Positions 1 through 56,457 of a stretch of 64,000 nt of DNA are shown piece after piece. Location: assembly GCA_046563655.1 (NCBI GenBank), contig CM102285.1, positions 13,082,001-13,146,000 on the forward strand. The letters run 5' to 3'. The number at the start of each line of letters is the position of its first letter. The stretch's first letter is position 1. This DNA is from Yuukianura sp. NJ FZ-2021. Lineage: Eukaryota. A program made the position numbers and the translations under genes. The notes below the pieces were generated by a model. The model had not been told where the DNA came from, did not search any database, and was given only the letters and a program-made list of their open reading frames with translations.

Positions 1-3000
1 GGCTTAAAGACTGTCAAGAAACGACCCAAGAAACCAACTGTTCCAGAAATCAAAACAGAAGAAATTCCAGAAATAATTCCGGTGATTACAGAAGTTACGC
101 AAGAATCTGAACTAGTAACCTTTACTCCTCAAGGCCGAAAGGTTGTCACAAAAGTCAAAAAGATTCGACGAGAAGGTGTCAAAGACCAGGATGTAGAACT
201 TGAAGTAACAACCGAAGGTCAAACACGTAAACTTTCAATTACTGAGGGCTCAGAAATTACATTACCTACGCCTTCTGGAGAAAAATTGAAAGTCAAAGTC
301 AAGAAACCAAAACCTGGACAAAAAGAGGACACGGTTGAAGTTGAACAGTCCATCAACGAGCAGACATTTGTTGTAACTGCAGTTTCACCTGGAGAATTGA
401 TTGAATTTACACCTCAGGGTCTCAAGACGGTCAAGAAGAAACCAAAGAAGCCACGGGTTCCAGAATCAAAAGAAGAAGAAGTCAAAGTTGAGGAAGCTGT
501 ATCTTTCATCACTGAAGCTACTCAAGAATCTGAGCTGGTTACATTCACCCCTCAAGGAAGAAAAGTCGTAACAAAAGTGAAGAAGGTACGCCGAGAAGGA
601 GATACAACGAAGCAGATTGAGTTGGAAGTAACTACTGAAGGTCAAACCAGAAGGCTTTCTGTAGTCGAAGATTCCGAAATTTCTGTTCCAACTCCATCTG
701 GTGAGAAATTAAAATTGAAAGTACGGAAGCCTAAACCAGATGAAAGTGAAGATCAAGTTGACATGGAACAATCAGTCAACGAGCAAGTATTTGTTACTAC
801 TGCTATTTCTCCTGGAGAGCTTATTGAATTCACTCCTCAGGGCTTAAAGACTGTCAAGAAACGACCCAAGAAACCAACTGTTCCAGAAATCAAAACAGAA
901 GAAATTCCAGAAATTATTCCGGTGATTACAGAAGTTACACAAGAGTCTGAACTAGTCACCTTTACTCCTCAAGGCCGAAAGGTTGTCACAAAAGTCAAAA
1001 AGATTCGACGAGAAGGTGTCAAAGACCAGGATGTAGAACTTGAAGTCACAACCGAAGGTCAAACACGTAAACTTTCAATTACTGAGGGCTCAGAAATTAC
1101 ATTACCTACGCCTTCTGGAGAAAAATTGAAAGTCAAAGTCAAGAAACCAAAACCTGGACAAAAAGAGGACACGGTTGAAGTTGAACAGTCCATCAACGAG
1201 CAGACATTTGTTGTAACTGCAGTTTCACCTGGAGAATTAATTGAATTTACACCTCAGGGTCTCAAGACGGTCAAAAAGAAACCAAAGAAGCCACGGGTTC
1301 CAGAATCAAAAGAAGAAGAAGTCAAAGTTGAGGAAGCTGTATCTTTCATCACTGAAGCTACTCAAGAATCTGAGCTGGTTACATTCACCCCTCAAGGAAG
1401 AAAAGTTGTAACCAAAGTCAAAAAGGTACGCCGAGAAGGAGATACTACAAAGCAAATTGAGTTGGAGGTAACTACTGAAGGTCAAACAAGAAGGCTTTCT
1501 GTTGTCGAAGATTCCGAAATTTCTGTTCCAACTCCATCTGGTGAGAAATTAAAATTGAAAGTACGGAAGCCTAAACCAGATGAAAGTGAAGATCAAGTTG
1601 ACATGGAACAATCAGTCAACGAGCAAGTATTTGTTACTACTGCTATTTCTCCTGGAGAGCTTATTGAATTCACTCCTCAGGGCTTAAAGACTGTCAAGAA
1701 ACGACCCAAGAAACCAACTGTTCCAGAAATCAAAACAGAAGAAATTCCAGAAATTATTCCGGTGATTACAGAAGTTACACAAGAGTCTGAACTAGTCACC
1801 TTTACTCCTCAAGGCCGAAAGGTTGTCACAAAAGTCAAAAAGATTCGACGAGAAGGTGTCAAAGACCAGGATGTAGAACTTGAAGTCACAACCGAAGGTC
1901 AAACACGTAAACTTTCAATTACTGAGGGCTCAGAAATTACATTACCTACGCCTTCTGGAGAAAAATTGAAAGTCAAAGTCAAGAAACCAAAACCTGGACA
2001 AAAAGAGGACACGGTTGAAGTTGAACAGTCCATCAACGAGCAGACATTTGTTGTAACTGCAGTTTCACCTGGAGAATTGATTGAATTTACACCTCAGGGT
2101 CTCAAGACGGTCAAGAAGAAACCAAAGAAGCCACGGGTTCCAGAATCAAAAGAAGAAGAAGTCAAAGTTGAGGAAGCTGTATCTTTCATCACTGAAGCTA
2201 CTCAAGAATCTGAGCTGGTTACATTCACCCCTCAAGGAAGAAAAGTTGTAACCAAAGTCAAAAAGGTACGCCGAGAAGGAGATACTACAAAGCAAATTGA
2301 GTTGGAGGTAACTACTGAAGGTCAAACAAGAAGGCTTTCTGTTGTCGAAGATTCCGAAATTTCTGTTCCAACTCCATCTGGTGAGAAATTAAAATTGAAA
2401 GTACGGAAGCCTAAACCAGATGAAAGTGAAGATCAAGTTGACATGGAACAATCAGTCAACGAGCAAGTATTTGTTACTACTGCTATTTCTCCTGGAGAGC
2501 TTATTGAATTCACTCCTCAGGGCTTAAAGACTGTCAAGAAACGACCCAAGAAACCAACTGTTCCAGAAATCAAAACAGAAGAAATTCCAGAAATTATTCC
2601 GGTGATTACAGAAGTTACACAAGAGTCTGAACTAGTCACCTTTACTCCTCAAGGCCGAAAGGTTGTCACAAAAGTCAAAAAGATTCGACGAGAAGGTGTC
2701 AAAGACCAGGATGTGGAACTTGAAGTCACAACCGAAGGTCAAACACGTAAACTTTCAATTACTGAGGGCTCAGAAATTACATTACCTACGCCTTCTGGAG
2801 AAAAATTGAAAGTCAAAGTCAAGAAACCAAAACCTGGACAAAAAGAGGACACGGTTGAAGTTGAACAGTCCATCAACGAGCAGACATTTGTTGTAACTGC
2901 AGTTTCACCTGGAGAATTAATTGAATTTACACCTCAGGGTCTCAAGACGGTCAAAAAGAAACCAAAGAAGCCACGGGTTCCAGAATCAAAAGAAGAAGAA

Positions 3001-6000
3001 GTCAAAGTTGAGGAAGCTGTATCTTTCATCACTGAAGCTACTCAAGAATCTGAGCTGGTTACATTCACCCCTCAAGGAAGAAAAGTTGTAACCAAAGTCA
3101 AAAAGGTACGCCGAGAAGGAGATACTACAAAGCAAATTGAGTTGGAGGTAACTACTGAAGGTCAAACAAGAAGGCTTTCTGTTGTCGAAGATTCCGAAAT
3201 TTCTGTTCCAACTCCATCTGGTGAGAAATTAAAATTGAAAGTACGGAAGCCTAAACCAGACGAAAGTGAAGATCAAGTTGACATGGAACAATCAGTCAAC
3301 GAGCAAGTATTTGTTACTACTGCTATTTCTCCTGGAGAGCTTATTGAATTCACTCCTCAGGGCTTAAAGACTGTCAAGAAACGACCCAAGAAACCAACTG
3401 TTCCAGAAATCAAAACAGAAGAAATTCCAGAAATTATTCCGGTGATTACAGAAGTTACACAAGAGTCTGAACTAGTCACCTTTACTCCTCAAGGCCGAAA
3501 GGTTGTCACAAAAGTCAAAAAGATTCGACGAGAAGGTGTCAAAGACCAGGATGTAGAACTTGAAGTCACAACCGAAGGTCAAACACGTAAACTTTCAATT
3601 ACTGAGGGCTCAGAAATTACATTACCTACGCCTTCTGGAGAAAAATTGAAAGTCAAAGTCAAGAAACCAAAACCTGGACAAAAAGAGGACACGGTTGAAG
3701 TTGAACAGTCCATCAACGAGCAGACATTTGTTGTAACTGCAGTTTCACCTGGAGAATTGATTGAATTTACACCTCAGGGTCTCAAGACGGTCAAGAAGAA
3801 ACCAAAGAAGCCACGGGTTCCAGAATCAAAAGAAGAAGAAGTCAAAGTTGAGGAAGCTGTATCTTTCATCACTGAAGCTACTCAAGAATCTGAGCTGGTT
3901 ACATTCACCCCTCAAGGAAGAAAAGTCGTAACAAAAGTGAAGAAGGTACGCCGAGAAGGAGATACAACGAAGCAGATTGAGTTGGAAGTAACTACTGAAG
4001 GTCAAACCAGAAGGCTTTCTGTAGTCGAAGATTCTGAAATTTCTGTTCCAACTCCATCTGGTGAAAAATTAAAATTAAAAGTAAGGAAGCCTAAACCAGA
4101 CGAAAGTGAAGATCAAGTTGACATGGAACAATCCGTCAACGAGCAAGTATTTGTTACTACTGCTATTTCTCCTGGAGAGCTTATTGAATTCACTCCTCAG
4201 GGCTTGAAGACTGTCAAGAAACGACCCAAGAAACCAACTGTTCCAGAAATCAAAACAGAAGAAATTCCAGAAATTATTCCGGTGATTACAGAAGTTACAC
4301 AAGAGTCTGAACTAGTCACCTTTACTCCTCAAGGCCGAAAGGTTGTCACAAAAGTCAAAAAGATTCGACGAGAAGGTGTCAAAGACCAGGATGTGGAACT
4401 TGAAGTCACAACCGAAGGTCAAACACGTAAACTTTCAATTACTGAGGGCTCAGAAATTACATTACCTACGCCTTCTGGAGAAAAATTGAAAGTCAAAGTC
4501 AAGAAACCAAAACCTGGACAAAAAGAGGACACGGTTGAAGTTGAACAGTCCATCAACGAGCAGACATTTGTTGTAACTGCAGTTTCACCTGGAGAATTGA
4601 TTGAATTTACACCTCAGGGTCTCAAGACGGTCAAGAAGAAACCAAAGAAGCCACGGGTTCCAGAATCAAAAGAAGAAGAAGTCAAAGTTGAGGAAGCTGT
4701 ATCTTTCATCACTGAAGCTACTCAAGAATCTGAGCTGGTTACATTCACCCCTCAAGGAAGAAAAGTCATAACAAAAGTGAAGAAGGTACGCCGAGAAGGA
4801 GATACAACGAAGCAGATTGAATTGGAAGTAACTACTGAAGGTCAAACCAGAAGGCTTTCTGTAGTCGAAGATTCTGAAATTTCTGTTCCAACTCCATCTG
4901 GTGAAAAATTAAAATTAAAAGTAAGGAAGCCTAAACCAGACGAAAGTGAAGATCAAGTTGACATGGAACAATCAGTCAACGAGCAAGTATTTGTTACTAC
5001 TGCTATTTCTCCTGGAGAGCTTATTGAATTCACTCCTCAGGGCTTAAAGACTGTCAAGAAACGACCCAAGAAACCAACTGTTCCAGAAATCAAAACAGAA
5101 GAAATTCCAGAAATTATTCCGGTGATTACAGAAGTTACACAAGAGTCTGAACTAGTCACCTTTACTCCTCAAGGCCGAAAGGTTGTCACAAAAGTCAAAA
5201 AGATTCGACGAGAAGGTGTCAAAGACCAGGATGTGGAACTTGAAGTCACAACCGAAGGTCAAACACGTAAACTTTCAATTACTGAGGGCTCAGAAATTAC
5301 ATTACCTACGCCTTCTGGAGAAAAATTGAAAGTCAAAGTCAAGAAACCAAAACCTGGACAAAAAGAGGACACGGTTGAAGTTGAACAGTCCATCAACGAG
5401 CAGACATTTGTTGTAACTGCAGTTTCACCTGGAGAATTGATTGAATTTACACCTCAGGGTCTCAAGACTGTCAAGAAGAAACCCAAGAAGCCACGCGTTC
5501 CAGAATCCAAAGAAGAAGAAGTCAAAGTTGAGGAAGCTGTATCTTTCATCACTGAAGCAACTCAAGAATCAGAGCTGGTTACCTTCACACCCCAAGGAAG
5601 AAAAGTTGTAACTAAAGTCAAGAAGGTACGCCGAGAAGGAGATACTACAAAGCAAATTGAGTTGGAGGTAACTACGGAGGGTCAAACTAGAAGGCTTTCT
5701 GTAGTCGAAGATTCTGAAATTTCTGTTCCAACTCCATCTGGTGAGAAATTAAAATTAAAAGTACGGAAGCCTAAACCAGACGAAAGTGAAGATCAAGTTG
5801 ACATGGAACAATCAGTCAACGAGCAAGTATTTGTTACTACTGCTATTTCTCCTGGAGAGCTTATTGAATTCACTCCTCAGGGCTTAAAGACTGTCAAGAA
5901 ACGACCCAAGAAACCAACTGTTCCAGAAATCAAAACAGAAGAAATTCCAGAAATTATTCCGGTGATTACAGAAGTTACACAAGAGTCTGAACTAGTCACC

Positions 6001-9000
6001 TTTACTCCTCAAGGCCGAAAGGTTGTCACAAAAGTCAAAAAGATTCGACGAGAAGGTGTCAAAGACCAGGATGTGGAACTTGAAGTCACAACCGAAGGTC
6101 AAACACGTAAACTTTCAATTACTGAGGGCTCAGAAATTACATTACCTACGCCTTCTGGAGAAAAATTGAAAGTCAAAGTCAAGAAACCAAAACCTGGACA
6201 AAAAGAGGACACGGTTGAAGTTGAACAGTCCATCAACGAGCAGACATTTGTTGTAACTGCAGTTTCACCTGGAGAATTGATTGAATTTACACCTCAGGGT
6301 CTCAAGACGGTCAAGAAGAAACCAAAGAAGCCACGGGTTCCAGAATCAAAAGAAGAAGAAGTCAAAGTTGAGGAAGCTGTATCTTTCATCACTGAAGCTA
6401 CCCAAGAATCTGAGCTGGTTACATTCACCCCTCAAGGAAGAAAAGTCATAACAAAAGTGAAGAAGGTACGCCGAGAAGGAGATACAACGAAGCAGATTGA
6501 GTTGGAAGTAACTACGGAGGGTCAAACCAGAAGGCTTTCTGTAGTCGAAGATTCTGAAATTTCTGTTCCAACTCCATCTGGTGAGAAATTAAAATTGAAA
6601 GTACGGAAGCCTAAACCAGATGAAAGTGAAGATCAAGTTGACATGGAACAATCAGTCAACGAGCAAGTATTTGTTACTACTGCTATTTCTCCTGGAGAGC
6701 TTATTGAATTCACTCCTCAGGGCTTAAAGACTGTCAAGAAACGACCCAAGAAACCAACTGTTCCAGAAATCAAAACAGAAGAAATTCCAGAAATTATTCC
6801 GGTGATTACAGAAGTTACACAAGAGTCTGAACTAGTCACCTTTACTCCTCAAGGCCGAAAGGTTGTCACAAAAGTCAAAAAGATTCGACGAGAAGGTGTC
6901 AAAGACCAGGATGTAGAACTTGAAGTCACAACCGAAGGTCAAACACGTAAACTTTCAATTACTGAGGGCTCAGAAATTACATTACCTACGCCTTCTGGAG
7001 AAAAATTGAAAGTCAAAGTCAAGAAACCAAAACCTGGACAAAAAGAGGACACGGTTGAAGTTGAACAGTCCATCAACGAGCAGACATTTGTTGTAACTGC
7101 AGTTTCACCTGGAGAATTGATTGAATTTACACCTCAGGGTCTCAAGACGGTCAAGAAGAAACCAAAGAAGCCACGGGTTCCAGAATCAAAAGAAGAAGAA
7201 GTCAAAGTTGAGGAAGCTGTATCTTTCATCACTGAAGCTACCCAAGAATCTGAGCTGGTTACATTCACCCCTCAAGGAAGAAAAGTCATAACAAAAGTGA
7301 AGAAGGTACGCCGAGAAGGAGATACAACGAAGCAGATTGAGTTGGAGGTAACTACGGAGGGTCAAACCAGAAGGCTTTCTGTAGTCGAAGATTCCGAAAT
7401 TTCTGTTCCAACTCCATCTGGTGAGAAATTAAAATTGAAAGTACGGAAGCCTAAACCAGACGAAAGTGAAGATCAAGTTGACATGGAACAATCAGTCAAC
7501 GAGCAAGTATTTGTTACTACTGCTATTTCTCCTGGAGAGCTTATTGAATTCACTCCTCAGGGCTTAAAGACTGTCAAGAAACGACCCAAGAAACCAACTG
7601 TTCCAGAAATCAAAACAGAAGAAATTCCAGAAATTATTCCGGTGATTACAGAAGTTACACAAGAGTCTGAACTAGTCACCTTTACTCCTCAAGGCCGAAA
7701 GGTTGTCACAAAAGTCAAAAAGATTCGACGAGAAGGTGTCAAAGACCAGGATGTAGAACTTGAAGTCACAACCGAAGGTCAAACACGTAAACTTTCAATT
7801 ACTGAGGGCTCAGAAATTACATTACCTACGCCTTCTGGAGAAAAATTGAAAGTCAAAGTCAAGAAACCAAAACCTGGACAAAAAGAGGACACGGTTGAAG
7901 TTGAACAGTCCATCAACGAGCAGACATTTGTTGTAACTGCAGTTTCACCTGGAGAATTGATTGAATTTACACCTCAGGGTCTCAAGACGGTCAAGAAGAA
8001 ACCAAAGAAGCCACGGGTTCCAGAATCAAAAGAAGAAGAAGTCAAAGTTGAGGAAGCTGTATCTTTCATCACTGAAGCTACTCAAGAATCTGAGCTGGTT
8101 ACATTCACCCCTCAAGGAAGAAAAGTCGTAACAAAAGTGAAGAAGGTACGCCGAGAAGGAGATACAACGAAGCAGATTGAGTTGGAAGTAACTACTGAAG
8201 GTCAAACCAGAAGGCTTTCTGTAGTCGAAGATTCCGAAATTTCTGTTCCAACTCCATCTGGTGAGAAATTAAAATTGAAAGTACGGAAGCCTAAACCAGA
8301 CGAAAGTGAAGATCAAGTTGACATGGAACAATCAGTCAACGAGCAAGTATTTGTTACTACTGCTATTTCTCCTGGAGAGCTTATTGAATTCACTCCTCAG
8401 GGCTTAAAGACTGTCAAGAAACGACCCAAGAAACCAACTGTTCCAGAAATCAAAACAGAAGAAATTCCAGAAATTATTCCGGTGATTACAGAAGTTACAC
8501 AAGAGTCTGAACTAGTCACCTTTACTCCTCAAGGCCGAAAGGTTGTCACAAAAGTCAAAAAGATTCGACGAGAAGGTGTCAAAGACCAGGATGTAGAACT
8601 TGAAGTCACAACCGAAGGTCAAACACGTAAACTTTCAATTACTGAGGGCTCAGAAATTACATTACCTACGCCTTCTGGAGAAAAATTGAAAGTCAAAGTC
8701 AAGAAACCAAAACCTGGACAAAAAGAGGACACGGTTGAAGTTGAACAGTCCATCAACGAGCAGACATTTGTTGTAACTGCAGTTTCACCTGGAGAATTGA
8801 TTGAATTTACACCTCAGGGTCTCAAGACGGTCAAGAAGAAACCAAAGAAGCCACGGGTTCCAGAATCAAAAGAAGAAGAAGTCAAAGTTGAGGAAGCTGT
8901 ATCTTTCATCACTGAAGCTACCCAAGAATCTGAGCTGGTTACATTCACCCCTCAAGGAAGAAAAGTCGTAACAAAAGTGAAGAAGGTACGCCGAGAAGGA

Positions 9001-12000
9001 GATACAACGAAGCAGATTGAGTTGGAAGTAACTACTGAAGGTCAAACCAGAAGGCTTTCTGTAGTCGAAGATTCTGAAATTTCTGTTCCAACTCCATCTG
9101 GTGAAAAATTAAAATTAAAAGTAAGGAAGCCTAAACCAGACGAAAGTGAAGATCAAGTTGACATGGAACAATCCGTCAACGAGCAAGTATTTGTTACTAC
9201 TGCTATTTCTCCTGGAGAGCTTATTGAATTCACTCCTCAGGGCTTGAAGACTGTCAAGAAACGACCCAAGAAACCAACTGTTCCAGAAATCAAAACAGAA
9301 GAAATTCCAGAAATTATTCCGGTGATTACAGAAGTTACACAAGAGTCTGAACTAGTCACCTTTACTCCTCAAGGCCGAAAGGTTGTCACAAAAGTCAAAA
9401 AGATTCGACGAGAAGGTGTCAAAGACCAGGATGTGGAACTTGAAGTCACAACCGAAGGTCAAACACGTAAACTTTCAATTACTGAGGGCTCAGAAATTAC
9501 ATTACCTACGCCTTCTGGAGAAAAATTGAAAGTCAAAGTCAAGAAACCAAAACCTGGACAAAAAGAGGACACGGTTGAAGTTGAACAGTCCATCAACGAG
9601 CAGACATTTGTTGTAACTGCAGTTTCACCTGGAGAATTGATTGAATTTACACCTCAGGGTCTCAAGACGGTCAAGAAGAAACCAAAGAAGCCACGGGTTC
9701 CAGAATCAAAAGAAGAAGAAGTCAAAGTTGAGGAAGCTGTATCTTTCATCACTGAAGCTACCCAAGAATCTGAGCTGGTTACATTCACCCCTCAAGGAAG
9801 AAAAGTCATAACAAAAGTGAAGAAGGTACGCCGAGAAGGAGATACTACAAAGCAAATTGAGTTGGAGGTAACTACGGAGGGTCAAACTAGAAGGCTTTCT
9901 GTAGTCGAAGATTCTGAAATTTCTGTTCCAACTCCATCTGGTGAGAAATTAAAATTGAAAGTACGGAAGCCTAAACCAGACGAAAGTGAAGATCAAGTTG
10001 ACATGGAACAATCAGTCAACGAGCAAGTATTTGTTACTACTGCTATTTCTCCTGGAGAGCTTATTGAATTCACTCCTCAGGGCTTAAAGACTGTCAAGAA
10101 ACGACCCAAGAAACCAACTGTTCCAGAAATCAAAACAGAAGAAATTCCAGAAATTATTCCGGTGATTACAGAAGTTACACAAGAGTCTGAACTAGTCACC
10201 TTTACTCCTCAAGGCCGAAAGGTTGTCACAAAAGTCAAAAAGATTCGACGAGAAGGTGTCAAAGACCAGGATGTGGAACTTGAAGTCACAACCGAAGGTC
10301 AAACACGTAAACTTTCAATTACTGAGGGCTCAGAAATTACATTACCTACGCCTTCTGGAGAAAAATTGAAAGTCAAAGTCAAGAAACCAAAACCTGGACA
10401 AAAAGAGGACACGGTTGAAGTTGAACAGTCCATCAACGAGCAGACATTTGTTGTAACTGCAGTTTCACCTGGAGAATTGATTGAATTTACACCTCAGGGT
10501 CTCAAGACGGTCAAGAAGAAACCAAAGAAGCCACGGGTTCCAGAATCAAAAGAAGAAGAAGTCAAAGTTGAGGAAGCTGTATCTTTCATCACTGAAGCTA
10601 CTCAAGAATCTGAGCTGGTTACATTCACCCCTCAAGGAAGAAAAGTCGTAACAAAAGTGAAGAAGGTACGCCGAGAAGGAGATACAACGAAGCAAATTGA
10701 GTTGGAGGTAACTACGGAGGGTCAAACCAGAAGGCTTTCTGTAGTCGAAGATTCCGAAATTTCTGTTCCAACTCCATCTGGTGAGAAATTAAAATTGAAA
10801 GTACGGAAGCCTAAACCAGACGAAAGTGAAGATCAAGTTGACATGGAACAATCAGTCAACGAGCAAGTATTTGTTACTACTGCTATTTCTCCTGGAGAGC
10901 TTATTGAATTCACTCCTCAGGGCTTAAAGACTGTCAAGAAACGACCCAAGAAACCAACTGTTCCAGAAATCAAAACAGAAGAAATTCCAGAAATTATTCC
11001 GGTGATTACAGAAGTTACACAAGAGTCTGAACTAGTCACCTTTACTCCTCAAGGCCGAAAGGTTGTCACAAAAGTCAAAAAGATTCGACGAGAAGGTGTC
11101 AAAGACCAGGATGTGGAACTTGAAGTCACAACCGAAGGTCAAACACGTAAACTTTCAATTACTGAGGGCTCAGAAATTACATTACCTACGCCTTCTGGAG
11201 AAAAATTGAAAGTCAAAGTCAAGAAACCAAAACCTGGACAAAAAGAGGACACGGTTGAAGTTGAACAGTCCATCAACGAGCAGACATTTGTTGTAACTGC
11301 AGTTTCACCTGGAGAATTGATTGAATTTACACCTCAGGGTCTCAAGACGGTCAAGAAGAAACCAAAGAAGCCACGGGTTCCAGAATCAAAAGAAGAAGAA
11401 GTCAAAGTTGAGGAAGCTGTATCTTTCATCACTGAAGCTACCCAAGAATCTGAGCTGGTTACATTCACCCCTCAAGGAAGAAAAGTCATAACAAAAGTGA
11501 AGAAGGTACGCCGAGAAGGAGATACAACGAAGCAGATTGAGTTGGAAGTAACTACGGAGGGTCAAACCAGAAGGCTTTCTGTAGTCGAAGATTCCGAAAT
11601 TTCTGTTCCAACTCCATCTGGTGAGAAATTAAAATTGAAAGTACGGAAGCCTAAACCAGACGAAAGTGAAGATCAAGTTGACATGGAACAATCAGTCAAC
11701 GAGCAAGTATTTGTTACTACTGCTATTTCTCCTGGAGAGCTTATTGAATTCACTCCTCAGGGCTTAAAGACTGTCAAGAAACGACCCAAGAAACCAACTG
11801 TTCCAGAAATCAAAACAGAAGAAATTCCAGAAATTATTCCGGTGATTACAGAAGTTACACAAGAGTCTGAACTAGTCACCTTTACTCCTCAAGGCCGAAA
11901 GGTTGTCACAAAAGTCAAAAAGATTCGACGAGAAGGTGTCAAAGACCAGGATGTGGAACTTGAAGTCACAACCGAAGGTCAAACACGTAAACTTTCAATT

Positions 12001-15000
12001 ACTGAGGGCTCAGAAATTACATTACCTACGCCTTCTGGAGAAAAATTGAAAGTCAAAGTCAAGAAACCAAAACCTGGACAAAAAGAGGACACGGTTGAAG
12101 TTGAACAGTCCATCAACGAGCAGACATTTGTTGTAACTGCAGTTTCACCTGGAGAATTGATTGAATTTACACCTCAGGGTCTCAAGACGGTCAAGAAGAA
12201 ACCAAAGAAGCCACGGGTTCCAGAATCAAAAGAAGAAGAAGTCAAAGTTGAGGAAGCTGTATCTTTCATCACTGAAGCTACTCAAGAATCTGAGCTGGTT
12301 ACATTCACCCCTCAAGGAAGAAAAGTCGTAACAAAAGTGAAGAAGGTACGCCGAGAAGGAGATACAACGAAGCAGATTGAGTTGGAAGTAACTACTGAAG
12401 GTCAAACCAGAAGGCTTTCTGTAGTCGAAGATTCTGAAATTTCTGTTCCAACTCCATCTGGTGAAAAATTAAAATTAAAAGTAAGGAAGCCTAAACCAGA
12501 CGAAAGTGAAGATCAAGTTGACATGGAACAATCCGTCAACGAGCAAGTATTTGTTACTACTGCTATTTCTCCTGGAGAGCTTATTGAATTCACTCCTCAG
12601 GGCTTGAAGACTGTCAAGAAACGACCCAAGAAACCAACTGTTCCAGAAATCAAAACAGAAGAAATTCCAGAAATTATTCCGGTGATTACAGAAGTTACAC
12701 AAGAGTCTGAACTAGTCACCTTTACTCCTCAAGGCCGAAAGGTTGTCACAAAAGTCAAAAAGATTCGACGAGAAGGTGTCAAAGACCAGGATGTGGAACT
12801 TGAAGTCACAACCGAAGGTCAAACACGTAAACTTTCAATTACTGAGGGCTCAGAAATTACATTACCTACGCCTTCTGGAGAAAAATTGAAAGTCAAAGTC
12901 AAGAAACCAAAACCTGGACAAAAAGAGGACACGGTTGAAGTTGAACAGTCCATCAACGAGCAGACATTTGTTGTAACTGCAGTTTCACCTGGAGAATTGA
13001 TTGAATTTACACCTCAGGGTCTCAAGACGGTCAAGAAGAAACCAAAGAAGCCACGGGTTCCAGAATCAAAAGAAGAAGAAGTCAAAGTTGAGGAAGCTGT
13101 ATCTTTCATCACTGAAGCTACCCAAGAATCTGAGCTGGTTACATTCACCCCTCAAGGAAGAAAAGTCATAACAAAAGTGAAGAAGGTACGCCGAGAAGGA
13201 GATACAACGAAGCAGATTGAGTTGGAGGTAACTACGGAGGGTCAAACCAGAAGGCTTTCTGTAGTCGAAGATTCCGAAATTTCTGTTCCAACTCCATCTG
13301 GTGAGAAATTAAAATTGAAAGTACGGAAGCCTAAACCAGACGAAAGTGAAGATCAAGTTGACATGGAACAATCAGTCAACGAGCAAGTATTTGTTACTAC
13401 TGCTATTTCTCCTGGAGAGCTTATTGAATTCACTCCTCAGGGCTTAAAGACTGTCAAGAAACGACCCAAGAAACCAACTGTTCCAGAAATCAAAACAGAA
13501 GAAATTCCAGAAATTATTCCGGTGATTACAGAAGTTACACAAGAGTCTGAACTAGTCACCTTTACTCCTCAAGGCCGAAAGGTTGTCACAAAAGTCAAAA
13601 AGATTCGACGAGAAGGTGTCAAAGACCAGGATGTAGAACTTGAAGTCACAACCGAAGGTCAAACACGTAAACTTTCAATTACTGAGGGCTCAGAAATTAC
13701 ATTACCTACGCCTTCTGGAGAAAAATTGAAAGTCAAAGTCAAGAAACCAAAACCTGGACAAAAAGAGGACACGGTTGAAGTTGAACAGTCCATCAACGAG
13801 CAGACATTTGTTGTAACTGCAGTTTCACCTGGAGAATTGATTGAATTTACACCTCAGGGTCTCAAGACGGTCAAGAAGAAACCAAAGAAGCCACGGGTTC
13901 CAGAATCAAAAGAAGAAGAAGTCAAAGTTGAGGAAGCTGTATCTTTCATCACTGAAGCTACCCAAGAATCTGAGCTGGTTACATTCACCCCTCAAGGAAG
14001 AAAAGTCATAACAAAAGTGAAGAAGGTACGCCGAGAAGGAGATACAACGAAGCAGATTGAGTTGGAAGTAACTACTGAAGGTCAAACCAGAAGGCTTTCT
14101 GTAGTCGAAGATTCCGAAATTTCTGTTCCAACTCCATCTGGTGAGAAATTAAAATTGAAAGTACGGAAGCCTAAACCAGACGAAAGTGAAGATCAAGTTG
14201 ACATGGAACAATCAGTCAACGAGCAAGTATTTGTTACTACTGCTATTTCTCCTGGAGAGCTTATTGAATTCACTCCTCAGGGCTTAAAGACTGTCAAGAA
14301 ACGACCCAAGAAACCAACTGTTCCAGAAATCAAAACAGAAGAAATTCCAGAAATTATTCCGGTGATTACAGAAGTTACACAAGAGTCTGAACTAGTCACC
14401 TTTACTCCTCAAGGCCGAAAGGTTGTCACAAAAGTCAAAAAGATTCGACGAGAAGGTGTCAAAGACCAGGATGTGGAACTTGAAGTGACAACTGAAGGAC
14501 AAACCCGTAAACTTTCAATTACTGAGGGTTCAGAAATTACATTACCTACGCCTTCTGGAGAAAAATTGAAAGTCAAAGTCAAGAAACCAAAACCTGGACA
14601 AAAAGATGACACGGTTGAAGTCGAACAGTCCATCAACGAACAAACATTTGTTGTAACTGCAGTTTCACCTGGAGAATTAATTGAATTTACTCCTCAGGGT
14701 CTTAAGACTGTGAAGAAGAAACCTAAGAAGCCACGCGTTCCAGAATCCAAAGAAGAAGAAGTCAAAGTTGAGGAAGCTGTATCTTTCATCACTGAAGCAA
14801 CTCAAGAATCAGAGCTGGTTACCTTCACACCCCAAGGAAGAAAAGTTGTAACTAAAGTCAAGAAGGTACGCCGAGAAGGAGATACTACAAAGCAGATTGA
14901 GTTGGAGGTAACTACTGAAGGTCAAACCAGAAGGCTTTCTGTAGTCGAAGATTCTGAAATTTCTGTTCCAACTCCATCTGGTGAAAAATTAAAATTAAAA

Positions 15001-15570
15001 GTAAGGAAGCCTAAACCAGACGAAAGTGAAGATCAAGTTGACATGGAACAATCCGTCAACGAGCAAGTATTTGTTACTACTGCTATTTCTCCTGGAGAGC
15101 TTATTGAATTCACTCCTCAGGGCTTGAAGACTGTCAAGAAACGACCCAAGAAACCAACTGTTCCAGAAATCAAAACAGAAGAAATTCCAGAAATTATTCC
15201 GGTGATTACAGAAGTTACACAAGAGTCTGAACTAGTCACCTTTACTCCTCAAGGCCGAAAGGTTGTCACAAAAGTCAAAAAGATTCGACGAGAAGGTGTC
15301 AAAGACCAGGATGTGGAACTTGAAGTCACAACCGAAGGTCAAACACGTAAACTTTCAATTACTGAGGGCTCAGAAATTACATTACCTACGCCTTCTGGAG
15401 AAAAATTGAAAGTCAAAGTCAAGAAACCAAAACCTGGACAAAAAGAGGACACGGTTGAAGTTGAACAGTCCATCAACGAGCAGACATTTGTTGTAACTGC
15501 AGTTTCACCTGGAGAATTAATTGAATTTACACCCCAGGGGCTCAAGACTGTAAGGAAGCGAACGAAGAAA
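1..15570 (+). repeat. Coding tandem repeat, 840-bp unit (280 aa = 141-aa A + 139-aa B), about 18.5 copies, runs off the window start
   Basis: Near-identical lines recur every 840 nt (ggcttaaagactgtcaag at 1, 841, 1681 and onward, with a ggcttgaag variant in some units including 15121). Subunit A starts at 85 and subunit B at 508. Confidence 0.99.
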
Positions 15571-18193
15571 CCAGCTAAAATGGCATTTGACGAGACCGTA
15601 TCGGACGAAGAGATGGCTTCAATGAAGCCAAGCCTGCACCTTAAACGGCCAAGTTTGGCAGATCTTCTACCGGTTGACGATTCGCCCATCATGATTCCTG
15701 AACCTACCGTGCTTCCAACTGGTGAAGCAAAACCGAAAAAGAAAAAACGGAAACCCCTGCTACCATCCATAGAAGAGCCTTCGAAGCAGCCGGAACTCAA
15801 ACACGTAAAGGAATACGCAGTTTTTAGGAGGCAGAGCGTTACACTTCAAAAAGTTGAATTAAAACACACCCCACTGACACAGCGCGCCGTTGAACACGTC
15901 GTTCTTGAGCCAATTCTTCTGAAGACTCCTCAAATAATTCGGCATATAGCGGTACAAGAGGGTGAGTTTATAACATTTAACCCAATTCCACTAAAAGAAG
16001 TTATCATTGAAAAGAAGAAGCCGAAGCAATATGCTAAGCTGCAACCTTTTGAACCGTTCGAGTTGAAAGAAATTATCGCCGAAAAAGTGGAGCTGGAAAA
16101 GTATGTGAAACCGGAATGGACAAGCGTTGACAAGGAGCGCAAAACAACTGAGGATACGTCGAGTGCTCTCATCGAGTTGCCGGGTAGCGAGTCTCCAACA
16201 ACTGTGTCTTCCCCTAAACCAACAAAAGTTAGTGAACAGCCTAAAGAAAGCTCAAGACTTAAGGTCGGAAAAGGTAAACTCCCTGAAAAAGGCCCTGAAC
16301 CAGAGAAAGTAATACTTAAACCAATTAGCAAACAGAAACATGACAAACCAGTAACGGATGAAGCAGAACATGAGCTAAAACTGCGTGGTTCGGTTGAAGG
16401 AGAAGGAAAAGTTGAACTCGATTCACAGGAAAGGCTTCCCTTGAAAGGCGAACCACGTAAGAAAAGACCGCAGGATGACAAGGAAGTCGAATCAGAAGCT
16501 AAACAACCAGAAGAGGAACGCGAAGCGAAAGTACCAGGGAAAGAGAAAATCGACATGCAATTAGATACATCAACTGAGCAACGACCAAAGGATTCAACGA
16601 AGCTCACTTCCGAAGAGCCCTTAGAATTCCACGTGCCAACATCCGTCTCCGACCAAACTTCAAAGCCAGAAACGACTACTGATACTCTCAAAATAATTCC
16701 GCAAGATAAAGCAGATGATGCTAAACCAGAAGGCCAACTTGAAAAACCGAAGGCAATCCGCAAGAAACGAGTCGTAAAGAAGCAGGTAGTGCTTACATCA
16801 GATGTGCCTGCCAAGCAGGAGGACGTTCCATTAGAATCTGAACGCGTAGAAGACGAGGAAGCTCTTTTGGCCGAAGGTATCACGAAACAGCCGCTGGAAT
16901 CTACTGTCGTGACGAGCGAAAGTGAACTGAAATTTGAGTCGCCCGACACTACCACCGACGAATTAAAACAGAAACGACCAAAGAAGAAGCTTCAAGAGCT
17001 GCCGTCATTAGATGTTGAGTTTAGTCTACCGGAACCTTCAATTTTGCCTACCGGCGAACGAAAGGAAAAACTAAAACGTCAGAAAGTAAAGCAGGAATCT
17101 ATAGCTGAAGAAGTAGTTACCGTCCCACTGAAGCGCGCCGAAATGGTCAAAGCTTCAGTTGAGGAACCAAAGCTGGTTGAGCAGCCGAAGTTGAAGCCAA
17201 CAACTACACAGAAGAAACCAGTCCCTACAGAAACAGTAGTTGAAACTGTCACTCTGAAAAAAGTTGAAGTCTTTAAAGTTTTTGCAGTCCAAGAAGGCGA
17301 CTTGTTTGTATTTACACCGGAGTGCCTGGAGCCTGAAATTGTAAAGAAGCCCAAACTGAAACGTCTTCCAAAATTCGAAAAATTTGAACCTCTGGAGTTA
17401 AAACGGATAGAAACTCGGGATGTCCCTGAATTGGAGTTGTACGAAAAGCCAACATGGTCGACTATTGAAGAAACCGATACCTCAGATGGGACCAAAACAA
17501 AGGATTCCTCAACAAAACCAACAACGCAAGAAGAAACGACTGGCTGGAAAGTCGGCAAAGGAAAAATTCCAGAAAAGGAAGAAATCAATGAAAAAGTTCT
17601 GTTGAAGCCGATTCCAAAGCGCCAACCCGAACAAGGTGTTCCAGAAGTCAAAGACGATTCCATAAAGTTCTCACCAACTGAAAAACCAGAGGTCCTACCG
17701 ACTCAAATGACTTTGAAACCAGCTAAGAAACCAGCTAAGGACATTCCAGTCCCATATGATGAAAACCTTAGAAAGTTATCGTTGACGCTGAAAAAAGCAC
17801 CTCAAGAAGTTCTAGAAGAAAAAATTGAGTATCACACCGAATTTCATATTAGGCCGGATACAACATCGGTAACTCCAGTCCAGCTTCCGGCTTTGAAGGA
17901 ACAGTTTGATCAATCGCCACCACGGATCTTAGTCCCATTGGAATCTGTTGTCGCATCAGCCGGGTCACCCGTTGAACTTGTAGTCAAGTTTGACGGCGCA
18001 CCGTTACCAACGGCGAGCTGGTACCACAATGGAAAAGCATTTATTCCAAGGGAAGGAGTCTCAGTTCAATCGGATGAGTACATTACGACGTTGAGTATAG
18101 CGAACCTTGCGAAGCCAGTGACAGGAAAGTACGAAGTAGTTGTTTCAAATGAATATGGAACTGTCAAGACTTCGGGAACCGTACGAATTGTTG
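1..18193 (+). CDS. sls: Titin giant exon (at least 18.2 kb, open at 5' end): 280-aa repeat array, PEVK-like region, one I-set Ig domain
   Basis: Frame 1 is open from base 1. Ig motif PPRILVPLESVVASAGSPVELVVKFDGAPLPTASWYHNG...TGKYEVVVSNEYG at about 17916-18190. Donor G|GTAAGC at 18193/18194. Confidence 0.93.
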
Positions 18194-21100
18194 GTAAGCA
18201 CTAAAAGTTTGACGTTTGATAACTTAATTTTCACAACATAAATGTAGGAAGCAGCTAGCTGCATTTGAAACATGTATCAGCGAGATAGCACCGCAGTTGA
18301 GATTACGCTCAGTCCAAGTCAAATGTGTAAATAGAATGTTTCGCGAAACCTTTCCCAATTGCACAATATCAATTTTTTAAATTTCTTGAATGGAAATTGA
18401 ATTTTTGCATTTTGAAGTTGAGAACCATTTCGCTATTTTGTATCAAAACATTTGCCTACGATTTCATTACCGAAACCCTCCCTCCATTTAAATATACGGC
18501 ATATACTGAAATTCAAATGTCAGTTGGCGTCGTCCAACTGTAAAATACGAACAATGCGATATAGTTGTGTTGGTACCGTAATGTCAACGCCATTTGATTT
18601 GCTCTTTTGTTTGTACAGCGCCATCCAAGGAACCAGCTGAACAACTGGCCAAGGCACCAAAATTTATTCAGCCCTTACAGTCTCAAATGCTAGTTTCAAA
18701 GCAACTTTGTTTGCTGGAAGTCGTTGTGGAGTCGTTTCCAGACTGTTCATTCCAGTGGTATCACGATGGGATACTAATTGAGAATGGAATTACCACAAAT
18801 CAAAACACTTCTACCCTACTCATACCCGTTTTTGCGGAAATGGACACTGGAGAATATTCTGTAAGGGCGGAAAATGTTCTTGGATCGGTCACAAGTACGG
18901 CGGAAATGAAGATTACGGAAGAAATTATTGATGGCGTAAAGCCTTATTTTACTGAGGAGCTACAACCGGTGAAAGTAATGGATGGTGAAGTAGTGAAGCT
19001 GACATGCCAGGTAACCATACACATTGGGTGCATTCTTGGAATGTTAGCAATTTTGAATTGTTAATCCTTGTAAAGAGTTTAGCATGGTGCTTAAAGTGTT
19101 ATCCTTATTTCGTAGGTACAAGGGACACCACGCCCCCTGGTAATATGGCATCACAACAACCAGCCTATCAAACCTAACCGAGATATCATTGTGAACCAAT
19201 ACGAAAACGGACTCTGCGAGCTGGTAATCAATGAAGTATTTATGGAAAACCAAGGTGAATATACGGCAGTTGCCACAAACGTTTTCGGAGAAGCACATTC
19301 CGTGGCTACATTAACAGTTGAGGCTTACGAATATATCCCGGACTCCGAAATAGCAACGGGGACTGGCGAGCTACTCAGCATTTCAGATGATGATGTGAAA
19401 TCGATTCAAGAAGAAGTCTTTGATGAAGATGGTAACATAATCATTCGCCTATTTAATACTAAATACAATTAACTTTTTATAACTATTTTATAATTAAGAT
19501 TTTATAACAGACTTCATTGAATGATTTGTTACATTGCAGGCTTCTATGCGAAATGCAAATGCACATCAAAAAATGTGCAAATAATTTTGCCCAATCTCAT
19601 TTAGATTGATCAGTGTTTAGAATCCTTTATGTTCTTTTCATGTTGTTCTGTAATTTCAACGTTCTGCCATCGCCAAATATGGTTTTAGTGCCAAAATTTG
19701 TCTAATTTTCTGTTTCATTTACAGATACCTCAAGAAAGATCGTGCAACACAAGGAGGTTTCGGACTCGGTAATGTTCTCTTTTCGGTTCATATTTTTCAT
19801 TCCGCTTTCCTTGCTAATCTAACTATTTTGCTAAAAAAAAACTTTTTTCTCTTCGAAACCACTTATTGCGTAAATCTTTTTCTTCTACAGCGATTGCTTT
19901 CAAGGGAGGAGGAAGATGTAACCAAGGTTAAAAAATCCAAAAAGCGAAGGGATGTAGTAAGCCAGGAAAAAGAAAAGGAGTCGAAAGAATACATTGAAGT
20001 CCAACAAGAATCTCAGCCAATAGCGTTCAAACCAGAAGATAAAAAAATGAAAATCACAAAAACCAGGAAGCCAAAGGAAGCCGTTGCGGATGAAGAGCAT
20101 ATTGTGGAGTCCGTAGAAGTAATTCAGGATTCCGTACCAGTTGAATTCAAACCGGAAGAACTGAAAACCAAGACGAGATCAAAACGATGGAAAGACGAAA
20201 CAGAGGAGCAAGTAGATGCTGCTGTACAGGAACTTCAGGAATCCGTAGTTGTTGAAGTAACACAGCAGTCTCACCCCGTTGTGTTCAGGCCGGAACCACT
20301 CAAAACTACAGTGACCAGGAGAAAGGAATCGAAAGACGTCGAAACTGAGGTCATAAAGGAAGTCGAGGAGTCTAGAAAATTAGCTGAAGGCCAAAAAATT
20401 GTTGAATCTGTAGAAGTACTTCAGGAATCAATACCGGTTGAATTCAAGCCCGAGGACCGCAAAGCCAAAGCGAGATCGAAACGATGGAAAGACGCAGAAA
20501 AAGAATCAAAACCAGAAGTTGATGTTAGAGAAGGTGAAGAAACGGTTGAGATCGTTGAGGTAACCCAGCAGTCCCAGGTTGTAGAATTTCAACCAGAAGA
20601 ACGCAAAACCAAAGTCACAAGGACGCGGAAGGTGAAAACCGACGCGGAGCAAGCCGAAGTATCCGAAAAGTTGGCAGAAGTTGAACAAATTATTGAGTCC
20701 GTCGAAGTTGTTCAAGATTCTGTAGCACACGAATTCAAACCCGAAGAACGAAAAACTAAAATAAGATCTAGACGATGGAAAGATGAAGAGGAACAGGAAG
20801 CTGCTCCTAAATACCAAGAAACAGTTGAGTCTGTTGAAGTAACGCAACACTCCCTACCTTTTGAATTTAAGCCCGAGGAAAGAAAAACTACGCGCACTAG
20901 GAAGAAAAAACTAAAGGGCGAAGAAGAAGAGCAAGAATCAGCTGCTGAAGCTAAAGAAACGGTTGAGGTGGTTGAAGTCACGCAGGAATCTGTACCTTCC
21001 GAATTCAAGCCCGAAGATAGAAAAACTACTCGGACCAGGACTAAAAAAGTGAAGGAAGAAGAAGAGCATGAAGCCGCTGCTGAAGCTAAAGAAACGGTTG

Positions 21101-56190: not shown

Positions 56191-56454
56191 GTAAGTTTCA
56201 AATTCTATTTTTTAAGTCATTTCCCATTAAAAAACGAAAAATGAAGCGGCGAAATTCGAAATTACTCGTGATCCAAACTTTTGGAAATTTGCAAAATGTA
56301 CAGCATGGTCAACAGTTTATAGACAAAAGATGAAGATTAAAGTGGAAACTGATGAAGAATAAAGTTGTTGACGTTTCTCGGTTAATTTTTTTATGCGGTT
56401 TTGAATTTTGAAAAATTTTGAAATCTGAAAACTGAAATTGAGTTTGTTTTTCAG
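56191..56454 (+). other. Probable 5'-UTR intron of the first cuticle gene
   Basis: G|GTAAGT donor at 56191 and tttgtttttcAG acceptor at 56454, directly before AAAATG. Confidence 0.6.
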
Positions 56455-56457
56455 AAA

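Follow-up and report, generated by a model that had tools for sequence, protein, structure and literature searches.

What kind of element is encoded by the long tandem repeat that opens this part of the Yuukianura sp. NJ FZ-2021 genome? The window that we analysed is a stretch of 64,000 nucleotides from contig CM102285.1; all positions below are those of the window, and all of the features discussed lie on its + strand. Tandem Repeats Finder (TRF) reported a single array at 1-15573, with a period of 417 nt and 37.1 copies. When the frame 1 translation was split at the junction between PQ and GLKTV, the array (1..15537) resolved into 37 units, 19 of type A (139 aa) and 18 of type B (141 aa), which alternate strictly, form a super-repeat of 840 nt and comprise only four distinct protein sequences. 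The reference A unit occupies 1..417 and the reference B unit 418..840; they have 103 of 141 residues in common, and the 2-aa difference in length falls in a linker. A preliminary description of this DNA had claimed about 37 copies, a figure that both methods bear out, and had placed the start of the array at position 85; the array is actually open at base 1, and its last full unit ends at 15,537. Because the window begins within the array, whose 5′ part is cut off, 37 units is a minimum. The part seen within the window amounts to 5,179 aa.

Could so regular a sequence be a non-coding satellite, or an artefact of assembly, that is open merely by chance? Near-identical copies can stem from collapse or expansion during assembly, and the available part of one account of Caenorhabditis elegans offers a precedent, in that the ttn-1 arrays changed greatly in length between assemblies (PMC6210790). 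However, the array sits in one open frame of 6,067 codons that ends in an I-set immunoglobulin (Ig) domain, and the other frames across it contain no ORF of at least 100 aa. The 18 super-repeats differ from one another at 50 sites, and 48 of these are third positions of codons. The 840-nt head-to-tail junction is present in contigs of three public runs from three studies, an RNA library yielded contigs covering the repeat and pieces of the unique sequence that follows it, and an ortholog was found on an independent metagenome contig. In two DNA runs, the read depth of the repeat was tens of times that of the unique tail, which is consistent with many copies but is no measure of their number. 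One RNA-library contig omits 374 nt inside the array; because 374 is not a multiple of three, we read this skip as an assembly collapse between A and B. We consider an origin by chance or artefact to be very improbable indeed; it is contradicted as to coding, and the copy number alone could be wrong.

The array lies inside a sallimus or I-connectin-like I-band titin gene. According to the translation, the same exon continues with the start of a degenerate 38th unit and then a unique K/E/P-rich tail (15538..17919), which the Uversky line assigns to the disordered class, has a PEVK content of 48% and carries two isolated copies of a hydrophobic F.F.P-type motif. The giant exon ends with the I-set domain (17920..18186; Pfam E 5.9e-14, 52.3 bits, residues 808-896 of the 901-aa tail). 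In the next large exon, a 46-aa repeat is present in about 24 tandem copies (20825..24135; TRF period 138, 24.4 copies). More exons with I-set and fn3 domains follow downstream on the same strand, as do arrays that are PEVK-like; one PEVK-like exon lies at 39166-41862. The placement of a PEVK segment between Ig segments is seen here on the 3′ side, where an Ig domain ends the exon and Ig exons come after it; the 5′ side falls outside the window. In Drosophila, exon 17 of D-titin holds Ig43C, PEVK-1 and Ig44, as given in the accessible part of its description (PMC2185597). By this analogy, the position of the array corresponds to that of PEVK-1 of D-titin, within an exon that also encodes the following Ig.

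By composition, the A+B unit is unusual. A residue count confirmed the absence of W, C, Y and H that had been noted before; F makes up 2.5%, and the composition is dominated by E (15.0%), K (13.2%), V (13.2%), T (11.8%) and P (7.9%). The translation contains the strand-like segments quoted in the preliminary description, as well as the K-rich and acidic linker. That description had also called the unit 'not simple PEVK', which is wrong as far as composition goes: P+E+V+K reaches 50% in A and 49% in B, and the unit therefore counts as PEVK under the criterion for insect titins of more than 40% in 250-aa windows, as worded in the portion of the source available (PMC12063666). Charged residues account for 34-37% of the unit, and its position relative to the Uversky line is borderline, A falling marginally into the folded region and B marginally into the disordered one. 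The previously reported alternation between hydrophobic and polar residues was not above chance in crude shuffle tests, in which strict five-residue alternations numbered 4 against 3.1 in shuffles (matched by 184 of 500) and the local period-2 hydrophobicity signal had a z of 1.9.

Nor is the 140-aa unit the elementary module that it had been taken for. It is a triplet of sub-repeats of about 46 aa (aa 1-44, 45-92 and 93-139 of the reference A unit), whose pairwise alignments gave z values of 3.7-8.9; at most one of 500 shuffles did as well. Every 46-47 aa there is a basic cluster of 8-9 residues, three per unit; charge segregation has a z of 6.0, reached by none of 1000 shuffles, and charge autocorrelation amounts to 0.77 and 0.78 at lags of 47 and 93, respectively. 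The periods of the array are 46-47 and 139/141 aa, and the PPAK-type period of about 28 aa was not found in it. The first of the basic clusters, rich in K, R and P, opens the linker (aa 1-30; 1..90 in the reference A unit), in which it is followed by a P/E/I-rich stretch, and which is predicted from pLDDT to be disordered.

The 46-aa repeat of the next exon resembles these sub-repeats. Each copy combines a cluster of basic residues with a stretch rich in E and A and an EVTQES..F.F.P motif, and its register matches that of sub-repeat 1 of the unit. A hidden Markov model of the 46-aa repeat scored 7.6 and 8.8 bits on sub-repeat 1 of A, whereas the best of 200 shuffles reached 5.9, and hhalign aligned 16 columns of the repeat and a sub-repeat in register (P 0.0015, probability 17%). 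A profile built from six sub-repeats matched each 46-aa repeat in register (27 hits), at -1.8 to 5.9 bits, which is too weak for any one of them singly. The 46-aa array is far more charged (fraction 0.47), and neither it nor the 92-aa repeat matched any Pfam family. Because this repeat stands alone as an array, a spring made of linear motifs fits as well as a domain does.

How strongly is the sequence of the unit maintained? Comparison of the 18 super-repeats gave a dS of 0.073 and a dN of 0.0012, hence a dN/dS of 0.016. In the comparison with the ortholog (L001), 72 of 80 residues of the unit are identical (dN 0.091), as are 69 of 92 residues of the adjacent Ig (dN 0.189) and 158 of 487 alignment columns of the unique tail (dN 0.62). 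Judged by these substitution rates, the unit is under very strong purifying selection, and it is better kept in the ortholog than is the neighbouring Ig domain (dN 0.09 against 0.19). A and B differ and yet keep their common pattern, as had been claimed; of 11 hydrophobic residues at substituted core positions, 9 remain hydrophobic (Fisher p 0.0008). The same preservation was found in relative P0003 (p 0.021) and was not significant in P0002 (p 0.19), P0004 (p 0.056) or L001 (p 0.29); P0003 and P0004 are fragments of 122 and 106 aa, too short to tell two from three sub-repeats per unit.

Only three short fragments resemble the unit among billions of proteins. In a library of 1.84 billion proteins, phmmer matched two short fragments only, and hence no similarity to other titins was detectable in that library. 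There was no relative among 7,998 candidates of 491-2000 aa or among 4,913 candidates of 3,336-10,618 aa, and a pattern scan of metagenomes matched 97 stretches, one of which encodes a relative. Such a repeat was not described in the titles and abstracts of the literature searched. The array is a real, strongly constrained and lineage-restricted titin spring module.

Does the unit belong to a known family? For the A+B unit, Pfam listed 14 families at E values up to 10, none of them at the cut-off, and I-set, Ig_3, ig, fn3, PPAK and FAIM were absent from these 14 rows. The same search did detect the I-set domain farther along this exon (52.3 bits), which upholds the earlier statement that the unit is neither Ig nor FN3 by sequence. 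Ig and FN3 domains are Greek-key beta sandwiches with a conserved Trp, and often Cys, in the core; the unit has neither W nor C, and its models are up-and-down meanders of middling confidence. PEVK segments of titin are commonly defined by PPAK-type basic repeats of about 28 aa together with poly-E motifs, a combination that the array does not show. No sequence similarity to FAIM was found in Pfam at E values up to 10 or among the six PDB sequences matched at E values up to 10, and neither the ten-stranded FABP/CRABP barrel with its helix-turn-helix lid nor sequence similarity to that family was found in the unit. The PDB sequence search gave weak rows for the C-terminal domain of gingipain R2 (E 0.0048, 19.8 bits) and FABP (E 0.26), which we take to reflect a beta-rich composition.

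The preliminary description had proposed that the repeat is a folded beta domain, to be examined by AlphaFold on one and two subunits and by Foldseek. We obtained AlphaFold2 models of two units (A+B) and of one unit, from alignments of 6 rows. A beta core is predicted at aa 31-143 (91..429), with ten antiparallel up-and-down strands at residues 31-41, 47-57, 64-71, 74-81, 85-89, 95-101, 111-118, 121-128, 132-137 and 140-143, the tenth of which is the start of the next unit. The set repeats at +141 in B, and the single-unit model shows all ten strands as well. The two-unit model has a mean pLDDT of 52.6 and a pTM of 0.33, and its residues 1-31, 130-173 and 269-300, which correspond to the linkers, are without secondary structure (pLDDT 30-39). 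The single-unit model has a mean pLDDT of 63.2 and a pTM of 0.56; 51 of its 126 residues have a pLDDT of 70-90, the blocks across residues 11-100 have values of 62-79, and the last two strands fall to 37-48. No residue reaches 90. The predicted strands thus fall exactly on the eight segments previously listed, plus two N-terminal ones, and the linker is predicted to be disordered, but confidence in the fold is middling and the alignments are shallow.

Foldseek returned no clear fold match. With the single unit, there was no row at E up to 0.001; the best rows were CRABP/FABP (E 0.027, TM 0.36-0.39) and the N-terminal domain of FAIM (FAIM-NTD; TM 0.49 on the target). No titin Ig or FN3 chain was present among the 50 rows listed in each of two wide structural searches with these models of middling confidence. 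The two-unit model matched beta-propellers at E values down to 2.3e-5, but with TM of 0.14-0.26 and rmsd of 10-19 Å; we regard these as generic meander matches.

We favour, at a probability of about 0.55, a reading in which the core of the unit folds as a beta meander within a serial titin spring. The main alternative is that the array is a disordered polyampholyte spring of the PEVK type, with entropic and ionic (salt-sensitive) elasticity, in which the predicted strands would be at most transient hairpins. The P+E+V+K content of 49-50% stands beside 52.4% for PEVK-2 and 58.5% for PEVK-1 of D-titin, as given in the accessible part of that description (PMC2185597), and the array exceeds the 40% set for windows in the form available to us (PMC12063666). 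The high charge, the borderline Uversky position, the segregated basic clusters that alternate with acidic stretches, the significant sub-repeats with one motif common to the highly charged 46-aa array, and the position corresponding to PEVK-1 all agree with such a spring, as does the middling confidence of AlphaFold2. However, the unit is far better kept than would be expected if the spring were purely compositional: its dN in the ortholog is 0.09, whereas the K/E/P-rich tail has 0.62 and the Ig 0.19, and the dN/dS of 0.016 among copies points the same way. Moreover, AlphaFold2 parts core from linkers within one chain (pLDDT 62-79 against 28-39), and the array lacks the 28-aa PPAK-type period, just as PPAK is absent from the 14 families that Pfam listed at E values up to 10. 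We regard a wholly disordered spring as rather unlikely.

Strong constraint could also reflect binding rather than folding or elasticity, if the basic clusters and hairpin motifs were to dock on actin, myosin or another partner. The regular spacing of clusters of 8-9 residues would suit such a scaffold, and the PEVK segment of vertebrates binds F-actin via basic repeats. In contrast, no search suggested a partner, and the 46-aa spacing fits no filament period derivable here. As the principal explanation we consider a scaffold improbable; it is compatible with both the folded and the PEVK-type readings and does not exclude either.

How might a spring with folded meander cores work? Positions 1-15,537 are the 3′ part of a tandem array, which an I-band titin gene carries in one giant coding exon, and each unit would comprise a disordered K/P/E linker of about 30 aa and a core of about 113 aa. 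The core may form a ten-stranded up-and-down antiparallel beta sandwich or half-barrel, with a purely aliphatic interior (V, I, L and F) and a surface rich in K, E and T. The unit probably originated as a triplet of the charge-block repeat of about 46 aa, made of a basic cluster, an acidic stretch and a hydrophobic hairpin ending in TP[QS]G; repeats of this kind occur by themselves in the next exon. At least 37 modules in series would act as a sarcomere spring: on stretch, the linkers would straighten first, and the meander cores would then open one by one at low force, their terminal strands peeling rather than shearing, and would refold on release. At 0.35 nm per residue, the 5,179 aa of the array seen here would extend to about 1.8 µm, on the scale of the 2.1 µm of whole larval Sallimus, both reference values being those of the part of the source available (PMC12063666). 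Each opening would gain about 40 nm, and this release per module by unzipping rather than shearing domains would, if true, represent a new mechanical design.

The springs of the titin family have been explained by two elements, namely chains of Ig and FN3 domains and disordered PEVK-like segments. Our study suggests a third, a small, highly charged and aromatic-poor beta-meander module, present in at least 37 copies and more constrained than the adjacent Ig. In its fullest form, which we put forward only tentatively, the unit would be an autonomously folding and previously undescribed ten-stranded beta domain of FAIM/FABP-like topology, arisen by triplication and divergence of a 46-aa PEVK-like repeat and serving in an array of at least 37 domains as a third titin spring element that unzips and refolds at low force. 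This would be a natural case of a folded domain born from a PEVK-like linear repeat, and a warning that 'PEVK' calls made from composition only in recent surveys may hide folded modules. If the array is disordered instead, it would still be a PEVK variant of unusual regularity and conservation, with a charge pattern that recurs every 46 aa.

How does the array compare with known systems? Tandem Ig segments of titin consist of small beta domains and linkers, which on stretch first straighten out and then gain length as domains unfold, and the predicted array is likewise a series of small beta domains joined by linkers. Unlike tandem Ig, it has no Pfam Ig or FN3 match and no W or C, and its predicted fold is a meander rather than a Greek key; because the end strands would peel, its mechanical stability would presumably be lower. 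For the I-band titin of an arthropod, the crayfish, Fukuzawa et al. are said to have described in 2001 novel non-Ig I-connectin repeats of 68 and 71 residues. The sum of these two lengths, 139, equals the length of unit A, which we treat as a lead only; the sub-repeats here are 44-48 aa long rather than 68 or 71.

FAIM domains, according to the part of their description available, consist of two sheets with eight antiparallel strands in all and are similar to the up-and-down barrel of FABP (PMC6628066), and up-and-down antiparallel sheets, as in FAIM and FABP/CRABP, are also present in the single-unit model. In contrast to these domains, the model has ten strands rather than eight, no helical lid and no sequence similarity, and the unit is a repeat in a muscle protein. 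The TTN-1 protein of C. elegans, with its 39-aa PEVT and other repeats, shares with the array long coding satellites in a titin gene and elastic segments that are neither Ig nor FN3. Its units are short and were reportedly shown by Forbes et al. in 2010 to be disordered, whereas the unit here is 140 aa long, with predicted beta structure and a three-part substructure. In the accessible part of one account, a 117-bp coding array of TTN-1 reaches 14.9 kb (PMC6210790).

The PEVK of Sallimus is presumed, in the portion of the source available, to be an extensible spring that sets the lengths of the I-band and sarcomere (PMC12063666). Like the array, PEVK-1 and PEVK-2 of D-titin (Sallimus) are part of an I-band titin and occupy a very large exon together with the Ig that follows; they are also similar to it in composition (49-50% here) and in their presumed role as a spring. 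Unlike them, the array described here is a strict A/B alternation of near-identical units of 139 and 141 aa, with a predicted beta core and a degree of conservation that exceeds that of the adjacent Ig.

A giant open frame of 6,067 codons occupies positions 1-18,204 of the window on the + strand and runs off its 5' end; the only two other ORFs of at least 100 aa in the first 17 kb lie on the minus strand, outside the repeat array. Tandem Repeats Finder (TRF) reported a single tandem array at 1-15,573, with a period of 417 nt and 37.1 copies. Splitting the translation between PQ and GLKTV yielded 37 strictly alternating units, 19 of type A (139 aa) and 18 of type B (141 aa), with only four distinct protein sequences among them: A varies by a single E/D exchange, and seven B copies carry a V/I exchange. 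The preliminary description, which placed about 37 titin repeats at 85..15570, set the array start too late, in that the window edge cuts the array; its copy number is borne out and, because of this truncation, is a minimum. As it also stated, the A+B unit lacks W, C, Y and H; the composition is 15.0% E, 13.2% K, 13.2% V, 11.8% T and 7.9% P.

Could the array be non-coding or artefactual? Any two of the 18 complete 840-nt super-repeats differ at 1-39 positions, and variable sites number 50 overall, 48 of them third and two first codon positions; dS among the super-repeats is 0.073 against a dN of 0.0012 (ratio 0.016, Nei-Gojobori); as to coding, this alternative is excluded. The head-to-tail 840-nt joint is also present in contigs of three public runs from three studies. 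RNA-library contigs cover the repeat and pieces of the unique tail that follows it, which by itself is no proof of transcription. One such contig jumps 374 nt within the array; because 374 is not a multiple of three, this skip is probably an assembly collapse. Contig depth of the repeat (window 14701-15540; runs X1, X4 and X5) was tens of times above that of the unique tail in two DNA runs, with summed depths of about 14,000-33,000 versus 190-380 in X1 and about 90-150 versus 1-7 in X4. This excess is no measure of copy number; it fits an array extending beyond the window. Only the copy number, as assembled, may be inexact; arrays in C. elegans ttn-1 have been described as severalfold longer in long-read assemblies (in passages of PMC6210790).

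Directly 3' of the array, in the same exon and on the + strand, lies a unique K/E/P-rich tail of about 790 aa, followed by an I-set Ig domain at 17,920-18,186 (+; Pfam E 5.9e-14) and further Ig exons (+). A large exon at 20,825-24,135 (+) then carries a 46-aa repeat in about 24 copies, for which TRF gave a period of 138 and a higher order of 405 nt x 8.1, and Pfam no family; each copy combines a basic cluster with an E/A-rich stretch and a EVTQESVPFEFKP motif, and the charged fraction is 0.47. The open frame at 24572-33142 (+; 2,856 aa, T/E/S/Q/A-rich), non-repetitive by TRF, presumably forms a spring exon of the titin gene with unique sequence; its GC skew is opposite in sign to that of the flanking exons. 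At 34999-37464 (+) a 92-aa repeat with the motif KVKVKKTRKLA..PKPSEE recurs 8.9 times at a period of 276 nt and 73% matches; neither a Pfam family nor a period-2 hydrophobic signal (z -2.4) was found for it. A 19-aa (57-nt) PEVK-like repeat (12.3 copies, 97% identity) at 37913-38611 (+) passes into looser 18-20-aa K/E/P/V repeats (+) from 38611 to about 41,800; nowhere else in the gene is the period-2 hydrophobic signal as strong as in these repeats (z 6.0). I-set and fn3 exons (+) follow 3' of this sequence. In the exon at 42054-42500 (+), the first part, which precedes the I-set match, looks like the second (C-terminal) half of an SH3 domain, but at E up to 0.01 Pfam listed no family of that kind. 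This layout is that of an arthropod I-band titin (sallimus, D-titin, I-connectin), the word arthropod being drawn from gene architecture only. Past the titin gene, two ORFs 5 kb apart, at 56422-57783 (+) and 62735-63283 (+), may encode two secreted or cuticle-type proteins: the former begins much like a signal peptide and has PPKSQPA[DN]TYG six times over, its C-terminal region is found again in the latter, and the sole match was a sub-threshold Mucin-like one (22 bits versus a cut-off of 28.7).

Judged from its sequence, the 140-aa unit is not elementary: it is made of three sub-repeats of 44-48 aa, each running from G.K and a basic cluster through an acidic stretch to a hydrophobic segment closed by TP[QS]. 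In all pairwise global alignments, sub-repeat pairs within A or within B scored z 3.7-8.9, matched by 0-1 of 500 shuffles. The smoothed net charge has autocorrelations of 0.77, 0.78 and 0.90 at lags 47, 93 and 140, and charge segregation in the unit (z 6.0) exceeds that of all 1,000 shuffles. Sub-repeat 1 contains the motif EVTQES..(V)TFTP, and the 46-aa repeat of the next exon has EVTQESVPFEFKP at the equivalent position. Searched with an HMM of that repeat, sub-repeat 1 of the A units scored 7.6 and 8.8 bits, whereas none of 200 shuffles exceeded 5.9, and hhalign aligned the two over 16 columns in register (P 0.0015, probability 17%). By this likeness of sequence, a common origin of sub-repeat 1 and the 46-aa repeat appears likely.

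Does the unit fold? AlphaFold2 was run on two units (300 aa) and on one (residues 25-150), both on 6-row alignments. In the two-unit model (mean pLDDT 52.6, pTM 0.33), linkers without secondary structure (residues 1-31, 130-173 and 269-300; pLDDT 28-39) separate cores of pLDDT 53-72 comprising ten strands, with A and B positions equivalent. The one-unit model (mean pLDDT 63.2, pTM 0.56; 51 of 126 residues at 70-90, none at 90 or above) has the same ten strands, the last two weak (pLDDT 37-48). The strand segments listed in the preliminary description coincide exactly with eight of these ten; its folded beta domain, for which it proposed AlphaFold as a check, came out as neither confident fold nor disordered chain, an intermediate result on very shallow alignments. 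Its non-Ig, non-FN3 assignment held at the sequence level, with no Ig, fn3 or PPAK among the 14 Pfam families at E up to 10 (none at the cut-off); no Ig or FN3 chain was among the Foldseek matches listed. Beta-propeller matches of the two-unit model (Foldseek E down to 2.3e-5) had TM 0.14-0.26 and rmsd 10-19 A and were set aside as generic meander. The one-unit model gave no Foldseek match at E up to 0.001; its best were CRABP/FABP barrels (E 0.027, TM 0.36-0.39) and FAIM-NTD (TM 0.49 on the target). FAIM domains have eight antiparallel strands in two sheets, and their CTD resembles the FABP up-and-down barrel (in passages of PMC6628066). Membership of FAIM is unsupported, with no sequence signal in Pfam or a PDB sequence search, as is that of FABP, with only E 0.26 in the latter. 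All that we take from the models is a predicted topology of the up-and-down sandwich or half-barrel type.

Relatives were few. Against 1,835,955,588 representative proteins, phmmer with the 280-aa A+B query found, at E up to 0.001, just two short fragments, P0002 (121 aa, 57% identity) and P0003 (122 aa, 40%). P0004 (106 aa) came from a profile search confined to proteins of 66-247 aa; among longer proteins none was found. Because matches are so few, either the unit is lineage-restricted or giant arthropod titins are under-represented in the libraries. P0003 and P0004 (about 35-40% identity) can be aligned with the unit in either of two registers that differ by one sub-repeat, so that their units may hold two sub-repeats instead of three, which would bear on the ten-strand core as a fixed domain.

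On the metagenome contig L001 lies an ortholog comprising, of the array, a unit's final 80 residues, followed by the tail and the Ig domain. Synonymous sites between the window and L001 are saturated. The unit retains 72 of 80 residues (dN 0.091), the adjacent Ig domain 69 of 92 (dN 0.189) and the first part of the unique tail 158 of 487 alignment columns (dN 0.62). The unit is thus more conserved than a bona fide folded Ig beside it and about sevenfold more than the K/E/P-rich tail. Because that tail is of similar composition and in the same exon, composition alone does not explain the conservation, which we count toward a fold. So do we the 2-aa A/B indel, which falls in the linker, and the A versus B substitutions, which preserve hydrophobicity at nine of 11 hydrophobic positions (p 0.0008). 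Hydrophobic class is also retained at substituted positions in P0003 (p 0.021), not significantly in P0002 (0.19), P0004 (0.056) or L001 (0.29). The main rival makes the array a disordered polyampholyte of PEVK type, to which charge blocks of 46 aa would lend ionic, salt-sensitive elasticity. Toward disorder count the P+E+V+K content of 49-50%, which passes the 40%-in-250-aa criterion used to call PEVK regions across animals (in passages of PMC12063666), and the 34-37% charged residues; the Uversky line places A narrowly on the folded and B narrowly on the disordered side, and in crude tests alternating hydrophobicity was not above shuffles. We regard this rival as possible and distinctly the less probable, and a binding-scaffold role, compatible with either reading, as improbable.

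The best-supported reading, with a probability of roughly 0.55, is a series spring with foldable cores, in which disordered K/P/E linkers of ~30 aa would alternate with beta-meander cores of ~113 aa. The linkers would straighten at low stretch, and the cores would open singly at higher stretch. Because the terminal hairpins of a meander pulled by its ends would peel instead of shearing, low unfolding forces and easy refolding might be expected. At 0.35 nm per residue, one opened core would add about 40 nm, and the 5,179 aa within the window would extend to about 1.8 um; passages of PMC12063666 give this value per residue and a length of about 2.1 um for larval Sallimus.

A tandem-repeat spring segment in I-band titin is an already known category. 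The module is new in having no Pfam family and three fragmentary relatives among billions of proteins, in its predicted non-Ig beta topology, and in a three-part substructure with links to a PEVK-like repeat; no description of it was found in abstracts and in passages of titin papers. The work most likely to bear on this novelty is the crayfish I-connectin study by Fukuzawa et al. 2001, which reportedly describes novel 68- and 71-residue repeats. Together these make 139, the length of unit A, which may be a lead. In D-titin, exon 17 encodes the end of Ig43, PEVK-1 (1,240 aa, 58.5% P+E+V+K) and Ig44, and PEVK-2 has 52.4% P+E+V+K (in passages of PMC2185597); the array described here occupies the position of PEVK-1.
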